A DNA stretch of 64,000 nucleotides from Escherichia coli (lineage in GTDB: Bacteria; Pseudomonadota; Gammaproteobacteria; Enterobacterales; Enterobacteriaceae), in assembly GCF_003019035.1 (NCBI RefSeq), contig NZ_CP027447.1, one strand, 5' to 3'. A program made the position numbers and the translations under genes. The notes under the pieces were generated by a model that was not told the origin of the DNA, searched no databases, and worked only from the letters and a program-made list of their open reading frames with translations. Shown piece by piece: positions 28,800 through 53,985 of this stretch (positions within the stretch are counted from its first letter, which is position 1; the number at the start of each line of letters is the position of its first letter).

Positions 28800-29488
28800 A
28801 GCAACTGAAAAACGACGTGCTGGCGGCGAATCTGGCGCTTCCCGCTCACCATCTGGTGACGTTCACCTGGGGCAATGTCAGCGCGGTAGACGACACGCGG
28901 CAATGGATGGTAATCAAACCTTCCGGCGTCGAGTACAACGTGATGACCGCCGACGATATGGTAGTGGTTGAGATAGCCACCGGTAAGGTGGTGGAAGGCA
29001 GAAAAAAACCCTCGTCCGACACGCCAACGCATCTGGCGCTTTACCGTCGCTATGCCGAAATTGGCGGTATTGTGCATACCCACTCGCGCCACGCCACCAT
29101 CTGGTCGCAGGCCGGGCTGGATCTCCCCGCCTGGGGCACCACGCACGCTGATTACTTCTATGGTGCCATCCCCTGCACGCGACAGATGACCGCAGAGGAG
29201 ATCAACGGCGAGTATGAATACCAGACCGGCGAAGTGATCATTAAAACCTTCGAAGAACGTGGGTTGAACCCGGCACAAATCCCGGCTGTACTGGTGCATT
29301 CTCACGGCCCGTTCGCCTGGGGAAAAAACGCCGCCGATGCGGTGCATAACGCCGTGGTGCTGGAAGAGTGCGCCTATATGGGCCTGTTCTCGCGCCAGCT
29401 TGCACCGCAGCTCCCTGCGATGCAAAACGAACTGCTGGATAAGCACTACCTGCGTAAACATGGGGCCAATGCCTATTACGGGCAGTAA
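28793..29488 (+). CDS. sgbE: L-ribulose-5-phosphate 4-epimerase
   Basis: 231-aa class II aldolase/epimerase ORF. Confidence 0.9.
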
Positions 29489-29519
29489 TCCCTCACGCCG
29501 GGGCTTCATTGCCCCGGCA

Positions 29520-30335
29520 CTACGAATTGATATGTTCCTTGCTGTAACGTCGCTTCCACGCAGCTGGCGTTAAGCCGGTGTGTTTGCGAAAAATCTGCCG
29601 GAAATAGCCGACGTCATTAAACCCGCACAACGCCGCCACTTCCGTGAGCGATCGCGCTTCGCTAATTAACAGCTTTTCGGCTTCGCGCACCCGCTGGCGG
29701 TGGATTGCTTCTGTTAACGTCAGATGAAACACCCGCCGATAGACGCGCCCAAGATAATCGGCATTGCAGTACAGCTCGCGGGCTAAAAGCGCCGTGGAAA
29801 GCGGGCGGTGATATTGCGTGCGAATCAGTTTCTGCGCTTTCCAGGCAAGGGTGGTGCCTGCACCATCGGCCTGTTCATCAAGACGCGCGTCACGGGTGAG
29901 CTGCTGCAAAATCAGCAGCACAATAAACTCCAGCGCCGGAGTGCGTTGATGCTTTTCCTGTTCGCTTAAGAACTGGCGAAACAAGGCCACCAGCACCTGC
30001 GGATCGGCAACCTTAGTTTGTTGCGGCACGCTAAGATGAGTGAGCCAGCGCGGGTCGCTATCCGGCGCTTTAACCTCAAAATGCAGCCAGTAAAATTTGA
30101 GATCGGCGGGAAAATCCTCTACCCCAACATGCTGTCGGTTCGGCCAGAGTAATAAACTCTCTCCCGCATCGACCAGAAATATCCGCTCTTCTTCCTGAAT
30201 CGCTAATCGACCTTTTTCGACAAAGATAATTTCCCATGACTCCAGCCGCCTTGCCGGATGCCTCCCAACGCCACGGGAAATAAATAATCCACCATTTTGC
30301 ACTTTAATCGGTAACGTCATGGATAATTCGAGCAT
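29520..30335 (-). CDS. AraC-family transcriptional regulator (cupin sensor + C-terminal AraC HTH)
   Basis: 271-aa ORF with C-terminal AraC-type HTH (...LTEVAALCGFNDVGYFRQIFRKHTGLTPAAWKRR); divergent from the transporter gene. Confidence 0.8.
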   Translation of the reverse strand: MLELSMTLPIKVQNGGLFISRGVGRHPARRLESWEIIFVEKGRLAIQEEERIFLVDAGESLLLWPNRQHVGVEDFPADLKFYWLHFEVKAPDSDPRWLTHLSVPQQTKVADPQVLVALFRQFLSEQEKHQRTPALEFIVLLILQQLTRDARLDEQADGAGTTLAWKAQKLIRTQYHRPLSTALLARELYCNADYLGRVYRRVFHLTLTEAIHRQRVREAEKLLISEARSLTEVAALCGFNDVGYFRQIFRKHTGLTPAAWKRRYSKEHINS

Positions 30336-30383
30336 TGATATGTAATTTCCCGCTTATTCATTAATGATTAAACACATTACCTT

Positions 30384-30398
30384 TTGATTATTAATCAA
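30384..30398. promoter_or_regulatory. Perfect palindrome TTGATTATTAATCAA in the AraC / transporter divergent intergenic region (candidate operator)
   Basis: 15-bp perfect inverted repeat flanked by further ATTAAT direct repeats. Confidence 0.35.
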
Positions 30399-30560
30399 AA
30401 ACATTAATTTCACCTGATCCATTTCACACTTTTAAATTCAGGTCGGAATCGTCACCTTTTTTTACTCTTTTCTCGCCTTGTTGATATTCCCGTTCACGGC
30501 AGAATTAATCAGGTCATTGCAATAAAACTAAAAATTGCTCCCTATTCACGAGGAATATCT

Positions 30561-31961
30561 ATGACCTCTACACCGATTACTGCCGCTGATATCGCTAAAG
30601 GTAAAATTGACGATGCGTTATCTGTACGGGAAAAAATAAGCTACGGCCTGGGTGACGCAGGCGGCACCGTAATAACTTGCCTGATCATGAACTTTCTCAC
30701 CTTTTTCTACACCGACGTTTTTGGCTTAACTCCGGCGCTGGTCGGCACGCTGTTTATTGCACTGCGCGTGTTTGATGCCATCTCCGACCCGGTGATGGGC
30801 GTCATTGCCGACCGGACGCAAAGTCGCTGGGGGCGCTTTCGTCCGTGGCAGTTGTGGATTGCCATTCCCATCGGCATTATCGGCATCCTGACGTTCACCG
30901 TGCCAGATGCCAGCATGGGAGTAAAAATCGCCTGGGCGTTCGGTACTTACCTGCTCCTTTCAGTCGGTTATACCGCCATCAACGTACCGTACTGCGCGCT
31001 GATCAACACCATGACCACCCGCCACAATGAAGTGATCTCCTGCCAGTCCTGGCGATTCGTTCTCTGCGGCGTAGCGGGATTTCTGGTTTCGGTTGGCCTG
31101 CCGTGGATGGTGGATCTCTTCGGTCAGGGTAATGCCGCGCGCGGCTATCAACTGGGCGTCGGCGTGCTGTGCGCCATCGCTGTGGTGATGTTCCTGTGCT
31201 GTTTCTTCTGGGTTCGTGAACGGGTGCCACTCTCCACAATGGGGAAATTTACCCTGCGCGAACATCTTGCCGGGCTGCGGAACAACGACCAACTGCTGCT
31301 GATGCTGGTCATGTCTTTCCTGCTGATTAACGTCTTTAATATTCGCGGCGGTGGGTATATGTACTTCATTACCTACGTCTTACAAGGCAGTACGGGCTAC
31401 ACGTCGCTGTTCTTCACTATGGTCACCTTCGCCTCCATTATCGGCTCGGTGATTGTCAGCCCGTTAACGCGGCGTTTCGATACCGTCAAAATTTACTACT
31501 ACACCAACCTGCTCCTCGCCGCGCTGGCGGTGTTGATGTGGTTCCTGCCTTCTGGCCCGGCTTATCAAACGCTGTGGCTGGCGGTGATCCTCGGTAATGG
31601 CGTGATTCTTGGCTTCACATTGCCATTGCACTTCTCATTGATGGCCTTTGCCGATGACTACGGCGAGTGGAAAACCCGCGTACGTTCTTCCGGCATGAAC
31701 TTCGCCTTCAATCTGTTTTTCATCAAACTGGCCTGGGCCTCCAGCGCCGGGATCATCAGCCTGCTGTTTATTTTTGTCGCCTACCAGCCAGGCGTGGAAA
31801 ACCAGACCGCCAGTTCGCTTGGCGGGATCACAGCAATGGAAACATTGCTGCCTGCGCTGTTCCACCTGCTGCTGGCGATGGCGATCCGCTTTTGCAAACT
31901 CAATAACCCTATGATGTCACGCATTGCTAGCGACCTGCGTCAGCGTCATGTACAGCCTTAA
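30561..31961 (+). CDS. GPH-family (glycoside-pentoside-hexuronide) sugar:cation symporter, MFS superfamily
   Basis: 466-aa polytopic ORF with the GPH signature [25 protein letters not shown]. Confidence 0.8.
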
Positions 31962-31971
31962 GGAGCACAAG

Positions 31972-33951
31972 ATGAACATTTCGGAAGTCGATCTGCATAA
32001 ACTGACGGTCAGCGATCCGTTCCTCGGTCAGTACCAACAACTGGTCCGCGACGTGGTGATTCCTTATCAGTGGGATGCCTTGAACGATCGTATCCCAGAA
32101 GCGGAACCCAGCCATGCGATTGAAAACTTTCGCATTGCCGCCGGACTTCAGGAGGGTGAATTTTACGGGATGGTGTTTCAGGACAGCGACGTCGCCAAAT
32201 GGCTGGAAGCGGTAGCCTGGTCGCTGTGCCAGAAGCCGGACGCCGAACTGGAAAAAACCGCCGACGAGGTGATTGAACTGATCGCTTCCGCCCAGTGCGA
32301 AGATGGCTATCTCAATACTTACTTTACGGTAAAAGCGCCCGAAGAACGCTGGAGCAATCTGGCGGAGTGCCATGAACTTTACTGCGCCGGTCATCTGATT
32401 GAAGCCGGAGTCGCCTTCTTCCAGGCCACGGGCAAGCGGCGCTTGCTGGAAGTGGTTTGCCGTCTGACCGATCATATCGACAGCGTATTTGGTCCAGGTG
32501 AAAGTAAGTTACACGGTTATCCTGGTCACCCGGAAATTGAACTGGCACTAATGCGCCTGTATGAAGTGACCGAAGAGCCGCGCTACCTGGCGCTGACGAA
32601 CTATTTTGTCGAACAGCGTGGTGCGCAACCGCACTATTACGACCAGGAATATGAAAAGCGCGGGCAGACCTCGCACTGGCACACCTACGGCCCGGCGTGG
32701 ATGGTGAAAGACAAAGCCTACAGCCAGGCACATTTGCCCATCGCACAGCAGCAAACCGCCATTGGTCACGCGGTACGTTTTGTCTACCTGATGACCGGCG
32801 TCGCGCATCTCGCCCGTTTAAGTCACGATGAAAGCAAGCGTCAGGATTGCTTGCGGCTGTGGAACAATATGGCCCAGCGTCAGTTATATATTACCGGCGG
32901 CATTGGCTCACAAAGCAGCGGCGAAGCGTTCAGCAGCGATTACGATCTGCCGAATGACACGGTTTACGCCGAAAGTTGTGCTTCCATCGGCCTGATGATG
33001 TTCGCCCGACGAATGCTGGAAATGGAAGGCGACAGTCAATATGCCGATGTGATGGAGCGCGCGCTGTACAACACTGTGCTCGGCGGCATGGCACTGGATG
33101 GCAAACATTTCTTCTATGTGAATCCGCTGGAAGTACATCCAAAATCGCTGAAATTCAACCATATCTACGATCACGTTAAGCCGATCCGCCAGCGTTGGTT
33201 TGGCTGCGCTTGTTGTCCGCCAAATATCGCCCGCGTACTGACCTCGATTGGTCATTATCTCTACACGCCGCGTGAAGATGCGTTGTATATCAACATATAC
33301 GCAGGAAACAGCATGGAAGTGCCGGTAGAAAATGGCACGTTGCGCCTGCGGGTTAGCGGGAACTATCCGTGGCAGGAACAGGTGACAATTGCGGTTGAAT
33401 CGCCCCAGCCGGTGCGTCATACGCTGGCTTTACGTCTGCCGGACTGGTGCACACAGCCGCAGATCATATTGAATGGGGAAGAGGTCGAGCAGGATATTCG
33501 TAAAGGGTATTTGCACATTACCCGCGAATGGCAGGAGGGCGACACGCTGAATCTAACTTTGCCAATGCCAGTACGTCGCGTTTACGGTAACCCGCTGGTG
33601 CGTCACGTCGCCGGAAAAGTGGCGATTCAGCGCGGCCCGCTGGTGTATTGCCTGGAACAGGCCGACAACGGCGAGTCACTGCATAACCTGTGGCTGCCCG
33701 CCGATGCGCCATTTACGACATTTGAAGGCAAGGGATTGTTCCGCCATAAGATCTTAATCCAGGCACCGGGTTACCGGTATGAACAGAGCAATCCAGAGCA
33801 GCAACCGCTGTGGCATTACGACAGTGCGCCAGCCAAACGCCAGCCGCAAACTCTGACGTTTATTCCGTGGTTTAGCTGGGCTAACCAGGGTGAAGGCGAA
33901 ATGCGGATCTGGGTGAATGAGGAAAAGCATTGCCATCCGGAGGTTGGATAA
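31972..33951 (+). CDS. Glycoside hydrolase family 127 (DUF1680; beta-L-arabinofuranosidase HypBA1-like); start at the ATG preceded by AGGAG
   Basis: 659-aa protein; E-S-C and C-A-C-C-P-P-N motifs about 77 residues apart match the GH127 Glu/Cys3 zinc-cysteine catalytic centre. Confidence 0.75.
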   Translation: MNISEVDLHKLTVSDPFLGQYQQLVRDVVIPYQWDALNDRIPEAEPSHAIENFRIAAGLQEGEFYGMVFQDSDVAKWLEAVAWSLCQKPDAELEKTADEVIELIASAQCEDGYLNTYFTVKAPEERWSNLAECHELYCAGHLIEAGVAFFQATGKRRLLEVVCRLTDHIDSVFGPGESKLHGYPGHPEIELALMRLYEVTEEPRYLALTNYFVEQRGAQPHYYDQEYEKRGQTSHWHTYGPAWMVKDKAYSQAHLPIAQQQTAIGHAVRFVYLMTGVAHLARLSHDESKRQDCLRLWNNMAQRQLYITGGIGSQSSGEAFSSDYDLPNDTVYAESCASIGLMMFARRMLEMEGDSQYADVMERALYNTVLGGMALDGKHFFYVNPLEVHPKSLKFNHIYDHVKPIRQRWFGCACCPPNIARVLTSIGHYLYTPREDALYINIYAGNSMEVPVENGTLRLRVSGNYPWQEQVTIAVESPQPVRHTLALRLPDWCTQPQIILNGEEVEQDIRKGYLHITREWQEGDTLNLTLPMPVRRVYGNPLVRHVAGKVAIQRGPLVYCLEQADNGESLHNLWLPADAPFTTFEGKGLFRHKILIQAPGYRYEQSNPEQQPLWHYDSAPAKRQPQTLTFIPWFSWANQGEGEMRIWVNEEKHCHPEVG

Positions 33952-34020
33952 GGCGCTCGCGCCGCATCCAACGTAGGGAGCACATTGCCTGATGCGACGC
34001 TTAACGCGTCTTATCAGGCC
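33936..34020. repeat. BIME-like pair of REP palindromic units overlapping the 3' end of the GH127 gene
   Basis: GCCTGATGCGACGCTTAACGCGTCTTATCAGGCC (33987-34020) is a canonical REP; an imperfect inverted copy lies at 33940-33975. Confidence 0.6.
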
Positions 34021-34062
34021 CACGAGTCGGTGCAGTTGCCCGCTAACCATCGAAACGCGAGA

Positions 34063-34473
34063 TTAAACGCCCGGCAATACACGCCGGGCAGCTTCTGCCA
34101 GAAACGCACTTCTGTTGGCGTAGTCTGGGTTATTGCGCACGTAGGTATCAATCTTGTTCAGTAACCTTTTCGGCATCGTAATATTGATACGTTCAGCCCG
34201 ACCTTCGAACTGATTCATATTGATATCCACCAGCAACCATTGCCCGCCAATAAAGTCCTGCGCACGCTGGACCAGATGTGTTTCCACAGAGCCTGGAAGC
34301 GGCAACTCTTCATCCATCTCGCATAAGGTTTCGAAGTGCGCGACCAGTGCACTTCGCGCATCCTGGAAAGCGTTGTCCAGCGTATCACCAGCAAAATAAC
34401 AGCCTGGAACATCAGGGAAAAAACCGCTGGCGCTGCCGTCAGGATCACTGTGGATATAGGCGGGATAAAACAT
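34063..34473 (-). CDS. hicB: HicB-family antitoxin (N-terminal RNase H-like fold, C-terminal ribbon-helix-helix)
   Basis: 136-aa ORF 16 bp downstream of the hicA-like gene; C-terminal RHH-like segment ITMPKRLLNKIDTYV... Confidence 0.75.
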   Translation of the reverse strand: MFYPAYIHSDPDGSASGFFPDVPGCYFAGDTLDNAFQDARSALVAHFETLCEMDEELPLPGSVETHLVQRAQDFIGGQWLLVDINMNQFEGRAERINITMPKRLLNKIDTYVRNNPDYANRSAFLAEAARRVLPGV

Positions 34474-34489
34474 ATTGCCTCCTGAAATT

Positions 34490-34675
34490 TTAAAATGTTA
34501 AACCAGCCTGACGCCCAATTTGCGCCAGCGTACCGGGCTTAATATCTTTTTTAGGGTGCGGAACCGTCACCAGACCCGGATGAACAGGGTGGCGGAACTG
34601 ATGATGACTGCCACGGGTTCGAATATGTTCCCAGCCATGCTGCTTCAGGATGGCGATCACGTCTGCACTTTTCAC
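34490..34675 (-). CDS. hicA: HicA-family mRNA interferase toxin (YcfA-like); apparent GTG start
   Basis: 61-aa ORF with the GSHH motif (IRTRGSHHQFRHP); toxin-first gene order. Confidence 0.75.
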   Translation of the reverse strand: MKSADVIAILKQHGWEHIRTRGSHHQFRHPVHPGLVTVPHPKKDIKPGTLAQIGRQAGLTF

Positions 34676-34950
34676 ATCCCTGCCCTTCCATGATTATACA
34701 CACGATACACACAATTAGTGATAACAATCACGATAGCGCGATTTATATGGGCCGTCAGGGGGATAAAGTTGACTCAGGAATGCCGCTCGGAAGAAGAATA
34801 ACGGTGTGCAGTAACTTGTTGAAAAGATGCGAGGAGACTCGTAATTAAGTTCAATCAATATTCAGTCATTCAAGACGTAGACATTTGAATTGGTAAAACG
34901 CGTAAGCGTCGCATCAGGCAATGAATACCCAATGCGACCAGCTTCTTATA

Positions 34951-36596: not shown

Positions 36597-37892
36597 TTAC
36601 AGCGGATAATGCGCGAAGTACACGGCTTGCTGGTCATTAATTTTCTTCTCTTGCGCAAACCCTTCTTTAACAATTGTCCGTAAATCAGCTCGAGCCGTAT
36701 TATCAGAGACGCCCAGGCTCGCGCTAATTTCAGCAACTGTGTACTCTTTCCCCGGATTGGCGAGCATCACATTCAGGAGCGTTACCTGGCGCGGATTCAG
36801 GCGTTTAAGCACACCAGAGCTAAACAGCACACTATCGAGTTTTGCGCTTCGTTGTGTAATTTCATCGATATGCTGCTGCCAGTTTTGCAGAGCACGTTTA
36901 ATGACACCCGCCTGATATTCAAGGAAATAAGTCAGATCCATACCATCTGATTCAGTGTACTGGTAGCTGGCGGCATATTTGACCGGTGCAGCATGAAGCA
37001 AACGGCTGATGGAAATATATTTAAAGACATCGTAGCCCGATTTCAGCATATACCAGTAAAACAGCGCCCGACTGGTGCGCCCGTTGCCATCCCGAAACGG
37101 ATGTTCATGGGCCAGCATAAAATGCAGAATGCAGGCACGGACCAACGGATGAATATACCCTTCATGGCTGTTTAACCACTGGCAAACTTTTTCCAGCCGT
37201 TCCGGTAACAATGCCGCAGCGGGCGGTTGATGCACTATACTGCCATCATAGTCGGCGATCACAACATCATCTGTTTCACGAAATTCTCCCGGACGATATT
37301 TCGCGTCATTGATTCCACCCATACCAATGGCATGTAACTGGCGAATAAGCGCAGGTGTCAGCGGTTCTGCGAGTAAGTGCGGAATTTCCGCCATCAGCCG
37401 GGCATTTCCCGCAATCATATGCTCGTCTTCAGTGCGTGGCGACCGCCCTGTTTCCAGCATTTTTCTCGCCACCAGCGTTGTAGTATTCGCACCCTCCAGC
37501 TGGGAGCTGGTGATCGGCTCTTCCAGGCGTAACTGGCTTAACTCGGCTCCGGCCCCGCGTAACCGTTCAGTCTGATCTTTCAGCGCCAGCGCGGTAGCAC
37601 GTTTGTCGACAAGCTCGCACGCTTCTGCAATCACCGGGGTAATGTTGAATCCGGCCTGTTCACCCGCTTCATTGCAATAATTAATTCGTTGGATCGCCGC
37701 GTTGCGCGCCAGACGGGTAAGCGTCCACGCCACATCGACGTTTTCTCCTTTTTTGATGCGGTACTGCAACTCATCAAAAGGCAGATAACGTCCTTTTTCA
37801 TCGGTAACCCGGTTAAAGCGCAGGTGGGCCAGGAGTTCCTCACCCGATAAGTGTGATAAAGGAATAAGTCCGGGAGGTGATTTGATAGCCAT
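36597..37892 (-). CDS. Class II Fic-domain protein (putative AMPylase) with N-terminal inhibitory motif and C-terminal helix-turn-helix-like region
   Basis: 431-aa ORF; canonical Fic motif [12 protein letters not shown]; inhibitory-helix motif S-S-Q-L-E-G; C-terminal winged-helix-like segment. Confidence 0.85.
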
Positions 37893-53769: not shown

Positions 53770-53985
53770 CTGCAGATCACATCAGGTGAACGCCGTAAGA
53801 AAATATCTTGTGATTCAGATCACAAAGATTCAACAAACTAACAAAACAAAAATGTGACATTACTCACATTTAAATGCCATTTTTAGCGAAAATCGCCGCC
53901 TTGTTGCTTTTTTACACAAGAGTTTTGTGATGCACATCACGTCAATTACCTCTCTACCCCCTATATTTATGTGATTCATATCACA
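53770..53985 (+). promoter_or_regulatory. mtlA promoter/operator region with a cluster of CRP-type palindromes
   Basis: TGTGATTCAGATCACA (53808-53823), TGTGACATTACTCACA (53852-53867), TGTGATGCACATCAC (53925-53939), TGTGATTCATATCACA (53969-53984). Confidence 0.65.

Follow-up and report, generated by a model that had tools for sequence, protein, structure and literature searches.

Positions 29520-33951 of a 64,000-nucleotide stretch of Escherichia coli DNA (contig NZ_CP027447.1 of assembly GCF_003019035.1; the whole stretch is hereafter called the window) hold an intact three-gene unit that encodes a regulator, an importer and a cysteine-zinc glycosidase of family GH127. The trio is probably a stand-alone unit for scavenging small beta-L-arabinofuranosides, and we have high confidence in its general design, namely a cytoplasmic GH127 glycosidase fed by a GPH importer under an AraC-type regulator. 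As a system it is not of a new type, being an uncharacterised representative of known families. E. coli SCU-301 is 100% identical over positions 29400-34100, and RefSeq gives the same three genes there (AraC family regulator, MFS transporter and glycoside hydrolase family 127 protein). An initial sequence-only reading of the window had placed three open reading frames (ORFs) here and proposed that they form a regulator/transporter/hydrolase unit; their coordinates match both the ORF list and the RefSeq annotation of SCU-301, the regulator gene is divergent, and the transporter and hydrolase genes form a translationally close-packed operon. The components of the locus are as follows.

29520-30335, minus strand: AraC/XylS-family regulator of 271 aa with an N-terminal cupin and a C-terminal double helix-turn-helix (HTH), divergent from the operon
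30336-30560, no strand: AT-rich divergent control region of 225 bp, analysed by alignment of 72 orthologous intergenic regions
30561-31961, plus strand: glycoside-pentoside-hexuronide (GPH):cation symporter of 466 aa (TC 2.A.2; TIGR00792, Pfam MFS_2)
31972-33951, plus strand: GH127 cysteine glycosidase of 659 aa, predicted to be a cytoplasmic beta-L-arabinofuranosidase (Pfam, PDB alignment)

The longest hydrolase ORF begins at TTG 31924. The true start is ATG 31972, which lies 10 nt past the TAA stop of the transporter gene, is preceded by AAGGAG and is also the start used in RefSeq. The transporter ATG has a GAGGA ribosome-binding site upstream.

The family assignments of the three proteins are solid, with scores far above what chance would give, and this includes the membership of the hydrolase in GH127. 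The protein matches the Pfam domains PF07944 (residues 12-427, E 1e-111), PF20736 (438-532) and PF20737 (534-649), and the three-domain architecture of the family, with an (alpha/alpha)6 catalytic domain, a middle beta-sandwich and a C-terminal domain, is present. Ara127N from Geobacillus stearothermophilus (PDB 4qjy) is the closest solved structure, with ~54% identity over the full length (E 2e-234), and HypBA1 from Bifidobacterium longum (PDB 3wkw) likewise aligns full-length with ~45% identity (E 4e-151); both are GH127 entries deposited as beta-L-arabinofuranosidases. HypBA1 is a retaining cysteine glycosidase with a Zn2+ ion bound by a (Cys)3-Glu site, in which Cys417 is the nucleophile and Glu322 the acid/base (PMC8106489). 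Counting along the HMMER alignment, the HypBA1 residues E322, E338, C340, C415, C417 and C418 correspond to E318, E334, C336, C412, C414 and C415 of the E. coli protein. The residues equivalent to the Zn2+ ligands E338, C340, C417 and C418 are E334, C336, C414 and C415, and alignment to C417 and E322 predicts C414 as the nucleophile and E318 as the acid/base. The HypBA1 residues H142, H194, H270 and Y386, which we take to line the -1 subsite, are kept as well. All ten of these positions are invariant in 81 orthologues.

These results bear out the sequence-only reading on several points. The E-x-C ... C-C-P-P-N motif that it described is found as E-S-C (E334/C336) and G-C-A-C-C-P-P-N (C412/C414/C415), and the similarity in length to HypBA1 holds (659 aa against 658 aa in 3wre_A). 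Its call of a GH127 enzyme agrees with both the three Pfam domains and the residue alignment, which shows the full cysteine-zinc catalytic set. A loss of the catalytic cysteine was looked for in the alignment with characterised GH127 members, and this residue is retained and invariant in the 81 orthologues. The nearest match of the protein is the HypBA1/Ara127N group, which points to beta-L-arabinofuranosidase activity (EC 3.2.1.185), in which terminal non-reducing beta-L-arabinofuranosides are hydrolysed. Its N-terminus, MNISEVDLHKLTVSDPF, has no signal-peptide-like sequence, and the enzyme is therefore predicted to be cytoplasmic.

The transporter was also correctly assigned to the GPH family by the first reading: it scores 333.8 bits on the TIGR00792 'gph' model (curated cut-off 231.35) and has the MFS_2 fold (PF13347, E 2e-73), with ~11-12 hydrophobic segments. 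Among the NCBIfam models, the YagG subfamily is its best match, at 355.7 bits and under the cut-off of 610, and it falls under the cut-offs of the other named GPH models, including MelB (211.5 against 456), the glucuronide transporter (190.7 against 528) and PRK11462 (322.7 against 836). Since it is below the cut-off of every named GPH equivalog, the protein represents a distinct GPH subfamily. It aligns end-to-end with MelB structures (E 8e-39). The acidic pair of helix II, which serves cation coupling in MelB (D55/D59), is kept in the D-x-x-x-D-P motif (D72-A-I-S-D76-P against D55-A-I-N-D59-P of MelB), where N58 of MelB is changed to S75. The MelB sugar-site residues D19, D124 and W128 are replaced by T36, N141 and C145.

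The regulator (RefSeq protein WP_000891824.1) contains an AraC_binding domain at residues 26-132 (E 6e-8) and HTH_18 at residues 184-263 (E 4e-19), together with a match to HTH_AraC (E 5e-8). AraC, MelR, RhaS/R and the other named members are not its orthologues, as equivalog cut-offs are not reached: the score is 60.1 bits against 208 on the NCBIfam AraC model, aligned over residues 38-268, and 38.6 against 253 on the MelR model. The N-terminal domain had no solved-structure match. The protein is 60-93% identical across ~68 species and occupies the same divergent position every time.

The control region between the regulator and transporter genes lies mostly within the composition interval 30000-30499, where the GC content is 0.44. 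After a sigma-70 consensus scan came up empty, phylogenetic footprinting on the 72 loci was used, and a ~95-bp core (30416-30510) was found to be nearly invariant among enterobacterial genera. Its consensus reads GATC-N4-TCACA-TTT ... AGGTCGGAAT(C/T)GTC ... TTTTT(A/T)TACT ... CTTGTTG - 16 nt - (G)CA(G/A)AAT. The following candidate elements were delineated.

30387-30392, minus strand: candidate -10 hexamer AATAAT of the regulator promoter, within the conserved TGATTATTAA block at 30385-30394
30413-30428, no strand: candidate CRP site CCTGATCCATTTCACA, with two mismatches to TGTGA-N6-TCACA
30440-30469, no strand: candidate AraC-family activator site, block AGGTCGGAATCGTCACC-TTTTTTTACTCTT adjoining the -35 element, with near-invariant columns in the 72 loci
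30478-30505, plus strand: candidate weak sigma-70 promoter of the transporter-hydrolase operon, TTGTTG (30478-30483), 16 nt and CAGAAT (30500-30505)

The CTTGTTG and GCA(G/A)AAT elements are conserved at constant spacing in the 72 loci, and the candidate activator block sits at ~-43 to -72 relative to the predicted operon start, a position typical of class II activation by AraC-family proteins (araBAD, melAB). This arrangement is consistent with a weak, activator-dependent operon promoter and an adjoining AraC-family activator site. The predicted starts fall near 30512 (plus strand) for the operon and near 30379 (minus strand) for the regulator gene. The GATC and TCACA columns of the candidate CRP site are at least 90% conserved, and its centre is ~91.5 bp upstream of the predicted operon start and ~41.5 bp upstream of the predicted regulator start; it is the conservation at helically sensible spacing that keeps this site a candidate, the pattern alone being insignificant. 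Two potential operators were rejected. The 19-bp palindrome TTTTGATTA-T-TAATCAAAA is confined to E. coli, and other genera keep just the core TGATTATTAA; since the block is not palindromic there, a -10 element of the regulator promoter was preferred over an operator at TGATTATTAA. A 23-nt direct repeat is not conserved as such in other genera. An Rfam scan of the control region for riboswitches and small RNAs gave no family match.

The trio is ancestral in the Enterobacteriaceae. One genome per species was scanned, which gave 265 relatives; the best 80 are overwhelmingly members of this family, with 76-96% identity, and include Citrobacter, the Klebsiella oxytoca group, Raoultella, Enterobacter, Kluyvera, Pantoea, Leclercia and Buttiauxella, as well as Salmonella diarizonae. 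The same order of divergent regulator, transporter and hydrolase genes was observed in ~68 Enterobacteriaceae species, usually near aldB and, in roughly one third of the species, directly after sgbE. Pairwise dN/dS, calculated for only three pairs of species, with Escherichia whittamii and two members of Citrobacter as the partners, ranges from 0.02 to 0.11 for all three genes (0.05-0.11 for the regulator and 0.02-0.05 for GH127), values which indicate that the trio is under strong purifying selection. None of the 81 GH127 orthologues has an internal stop.

Enterobacteriaceae bacterium MGYG-HGUT-00110 possesses, in addition to a standard trio (L030), a second paralogous module (L082, 4219-8956), which consists of genes for a LacI-type regulator, a GPH transporter and a GH127 protein with 70% identity and is inserted between ubiX and purF. 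Because this paralogous pair carries a LacI-type regulator, the transporter and hydrolase are likely to be the functional core of the module and the regulator exchangeable. All complete E. coli genomes lack this second GPH-GH127 copy. Outside the family, Bradyrhizobium spp. (L073-L077 and L080) have a GH127 protein 72% identical to that of E. coli, without GPH and AraC partners; so high a value is unusual between taxa this far apart and suggests that the gene was transferred horizontally. The neighbouring Bradyrhizobium genes were considered as a clue to the substrate and proved uninformative, as they encode a histidine kinase, an S9-peptidase-like protein and proteins of no assigned function; in L075, the S9-peptidase-like gene is located just upstream of the GH127 gene.

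Within E. coli, the intact locus occurs in 2312 of 5426 complete genomes (~43%). An independent count with a divergent query gave 2314, with the pair in single copy throughout and no second GH127 paralogue. One identical deletion scar is present in 2461 of the 5426 (~45%), including K-12 MG1655, and the remaining ~12% show other states. In the scar, the final 102 nt of the regulator gene are fused to 190 nt from inside the GH127 gene, which corresponds to a deletion of 4021 bp (29624-33644 of the window); a second deletion of ~210 bp in the scar is flanked by the 9-bp direct repeat CCAGCCGCA. In MG1655 the two pieces are annotated as the pseudogenes ysaC (b4648, regulator piece) and ysaD (b4649, GH127 piece), at the same chromosomal place between sgbE and yiaT (scar stretches at 4814-5110 of L085 and 6121-6414 of L002). 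They are thus remnants of this very locus, with nothing functional left in K-12, which explains how the locus escaped study. The GH127 remnant is ~90% identical to intact alleles, whereas the intact alleles are 97-98% alike, suggesting that the deletion is old. The O157-like strain 155 (NZ_CP018237; 4871-5011 of L084) has lost yiaK-sgbE and has a yiaJ fragment fused beside the AraC-family gene, with the trio intact, and an O157:H7 genome has a GH127 gene annotated at the same position.

A precedent for the function of the trio is available in B. longum, where a GH121 enzyme outside the cell liberates the disaccharide Araf-beta1,2-Araf from hydroxyproline-rich glycoproteins; a transporter then brings it into the cytoplasm, where HypBA1 cleaves it to give two molecules of L-arabinose (PMC7263609). 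By analogy, we propose that other gut- or plant-associated microbes would free beta-L-arabinofuranosides, for which the same disaccharide is the first candidate, from plant hydroxyproline-rich glycoproteins, pectic arabinan or arabinogalactan. These glycosides would pass the outer membrane and be imported by the GPH cation symporter, then be hydrolysed in the cytoplasm by the HypBA1-type retaining mechanism, with C414 acting as the cysteine nucleophile, E318 as the acid/base and Zn held by E334, C336, C414 and C415. The product, L-arabinose, would enter the araBAD pathway. The divergent AraC-family protein may sense the glycoside or its product through the cupin domain and, probably with CRP as a partner, activate the weak promoter ahead of the transporter gene. 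The sequence analysis establishes the gene content, the protein families, the retained catalytic residues, the synteny, the purifying selection and a conserved promoter layout; we infer what the module takes up, in which direction it is regulated, whether CRP is needed and which cation drives uptake. Our confidence in a beta-L-arabinofuranoside as the substrate is moderate, and it is lower for beta1,2-arabinobiose specifically.

Several observations weigh against this assignment. The strict sigma-70 consensus scan of 29400-34600 detected no promoter, which is expected if the operon promoter is activator-dependent, as we infer, and the CRP pattern, at the stringency applied, is no more frequent over the window than chance would allow (37 matches against 25.7 expected). 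We know of no E. coli enzyme that releases beta-arabino-oligosaccharides, so that the model requires cross-feeding from other microbes. Ara127N, the closest structure, was reportedly named by homology instead of detailed kinetics. Our literature searches found no enzymology of this protein or any enterobacterial orthologue and no biochemical or genetic study of enterobacterial GH127 or of the K-12 pseudogenes. The E. coli hydrolase lacks a 12-residue N-terminal loop of HypBA1 (residues 39-50), a deletion that Ara127N shares, and GH127 holds at least three specificities, namely beta-L-arabinofuranosidase, aceric-acid hydrolase and 3,6-anhydro-D-galactosidase (PMC5698469).

The last two points also speak for the main rival explanation, in which the same architecture and chemistry serve another natural substrate and beta-arabinobiose is not the physiological inducer. 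Such a substrate could be an L-arabinofuranoside with a beta1,3 linkage or an aglycone, a sugar resembling an alpha-D-galactofuranoside or an undescribed plant, microbial or host glycoside. An identity to HypBA1 of only ~45%, sugar-site positions of the transporter that differ from those of MelB and transporter scores under the cut-offs of all named GPH equivalogs point in the same direction. In addition, a pangenome study listed a 'GH127 family protein' among the accessory genes that co-segregate with Caco-2 invasiveness of inflammatory bowel disease (IBD) isolates (PMC11879602; commentary PMC11954838), with its function inferred from HypBA1 only (PMC11879602). As E. coli has a single GH127 locus, the gene in question, presumed to be that of the present locus, is almost certainly the same one, and a plant-glycan role does not obviously explain a link with epithelial invasiveness. 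However, this link is correlative, comes from a small isolate set and may merely track phylogeny, and every catalytic or metal residue of HypBA1 that was checked is invariant among the orthologues. An identity as aceric-acid hydrolase was rejected, because the protein scores 455.1 bits on the corresponding model (NCBIfam NF049879, BT1003-type GH127) against an equivalog cut-off of 950; the match falls in two stretches, the best of which spans only residues 252-649. On balance, we consider a different natural substrate unlikely and favour the proposed model.

Two further explanations concern the place and the fate of the locus. The trio lies 31 bp downstream of sgbE, which encodes an L-ribulose-5-phosphate 4-epimerase, a neighbourhood shared by about a third of the species, and it might extend the adjacent yiaK-lyxK-sgbHUE operon (L-xylulose and 2,3-diketo-L-gulonate), with the glycoside-derived pentose going there and not to araBAD. 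This is very unlikely, since sgbE and the regulator gene run towards each other with a strong hairpin in between, YiaJ serves as a dedicated regulator of the yia operon, and many species carry the trio without sgbE upstream. Moreover, strain 155 keeps the trio without yiaK-sgbE and K-12 keeps yiaK-sgbE without the trio, and these independent losses of the trio and the yia/sgb operon largely refute a shared pathway. Membership of another known pathway had been raised at the outset as an alternative, and the adjacent yiaK-sgbE genes are dispensable for retention of the trio. The prevalence of the scar and of the other non-intact states in complete genomes could also be taken to mean that the locus is a decaying, functionless remnant headed for loss as in K-12. 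We regard this as extremely improbable given three intact ORFs in the window and in ~2312 genomes, the low dN/dS against E. whittamii and Citrobacter, the absence of internal stops in the 81 orthologues and a promoter core conserved between genera.

Compared with known systems, the E. coli hydrolase has the same three-domain architecture, length and catalytic and Zn residues as HypBA1 (BLLJ_0211), and like that cytoplasmic enzyme it is predicted to act after import of a small glycoside. The B. longum system imports through an ABC (ATP-binding cassette) transporter with a beta-Ara2-binding protein, whereas the E. coli locus would use a single GPH symporter, has an AraC-type regulator and lacks GH121 or GH43 extracellular partners nearby. 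Ara127N (araN of G. stearothermophilus T6, 4qjy/4qk0) is a GH127 enzyme deposited as a beta-L-arabinofuranosidase, and its gene is the last in a large arabinan-utilisation operon of this Gram-positive thermophile, while the E. coli gene belongs to a minimal three-gene module. In overall design the trio is similar to melR-melAB, which also combines a divergent AraC-family regulator with a single GPH symporter and a single glycosidase of the cytoplasm; judging from the conserved control region, the trio would likewise have a weak activator-dependent promoter, probably with CRP input. However, the trio has its transporter gene in front, the reverse of the mel order, the hydrolase belongs to GH4 in mel and to GH127 here, the sugar-binding residues of MelB are not conserved, and the regulator is far under the MelR cut-off. 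The yagGH and yicJI pairs of E. coli K-12, each with a GPH transporter and a glycosidase, follow the same logic of import and cytoplasmic hydrolysis of small plant-derived glycosides, but their enzymes belong to another GH family than GH127 and the trio transporter is under the YagG cut-off.

The RefSeq name of the hydrolase gene is already 'glycoside hydrolase family 127 protein'. The catabolic module as such was missed in the best-studied bacterium and is intact in nearly half of complete E. coli genomes, in O157:H7-type strains and in most Enterobacteriaceae genera. It is an ancestral, strain-variable nutrient module missing from K-12, from which testable predictions follow directly. Should the predicted activity be true, it would define a cross-feeding route from plant hydroxyproline-rich glycoproteins and pectins through primary degraders to enterobacteria, and would offer a Gram-negative, genetically tractable model for the cysteine-zinc glycosidase mechanism. 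It would also represent a strain-variable nutrient niche, with a bearing on gut and fresh-produce colonisation and on pangenome associations such as the invasiveness of adherent-invasive E. coli (AIEC). A more speculative extension, which we hold to be doubtful, is that the module is more than a HypBA1 copy and opens a glycoside not recognised as an enterobacterial nutrient, either cross-fed beta-arabino-oligosaccharides or a different furanoside, and that its presence or absence measurably shapes gut or plant colonisation. In that case, the cross-fed sugars could come from bifidobacterial or Bacteroides breakdown of dietary extensins and pectins, and the presence or absence of the locus (~43% versus 57% of E. 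coli) might underlie the link with invasive IBD isolates.

The locus is bounded by two further elements.

29497-29518, no strand: GC-rich hairpin GCCGGGGC-TTCATT-GCCCCGGC in the gap where sgbE and the regulator gene converge
33942-34020, no strand: pair of repetitive extragenic palindromic (REP) sequences, or bacterial interspersed mosaic element (BIME), at the 3' end of the operon, with the first REP overlapping the GH127 stop codon

The hairpin is likely to be a bidirectional terminator, judging from its sequence and position. The REP pair matches Rfam naRNA4 (RF02564) on the plus strand with 71.6 bits (gathering score 59.5), and a 35-bp exact copy of the REP sequence is present elsewhere in another genome. 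The last residues of the GH127 protein (...HPEVG) are partly encoded by the REP and differ between species.

Downstream of the trio, SCU-172 carries yiaTUVW, and the present window has hicBA in its place. Here, the HicA/HicB toxin-antitoxin pair (hicB 34063-34473 and hicA 34490-34675, both on the minus strand; 34034-34900) replaces the yiaT-yiaU-yiaV-yiaW genes of K-12- and SCU-172-type strains. A hicB homologue is also found downstream of the GH127 gene in several other genera, and the hicBA arrangement beside GH127 may be older than the yiaTUVW one. Further along the window, a gene for a 431-aa Fic-family protein (36597-37892, minus strand) is located between aldB and yiaY, where MG1655 has no gene. 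Finally, four matches to the CRP consensus (TGTGA-N6-TCACA), three perfect and one with a single mismatch, occur within 180 bp at 53809-53985, a clustering that suggests a strongly CRP-controlled promoter.

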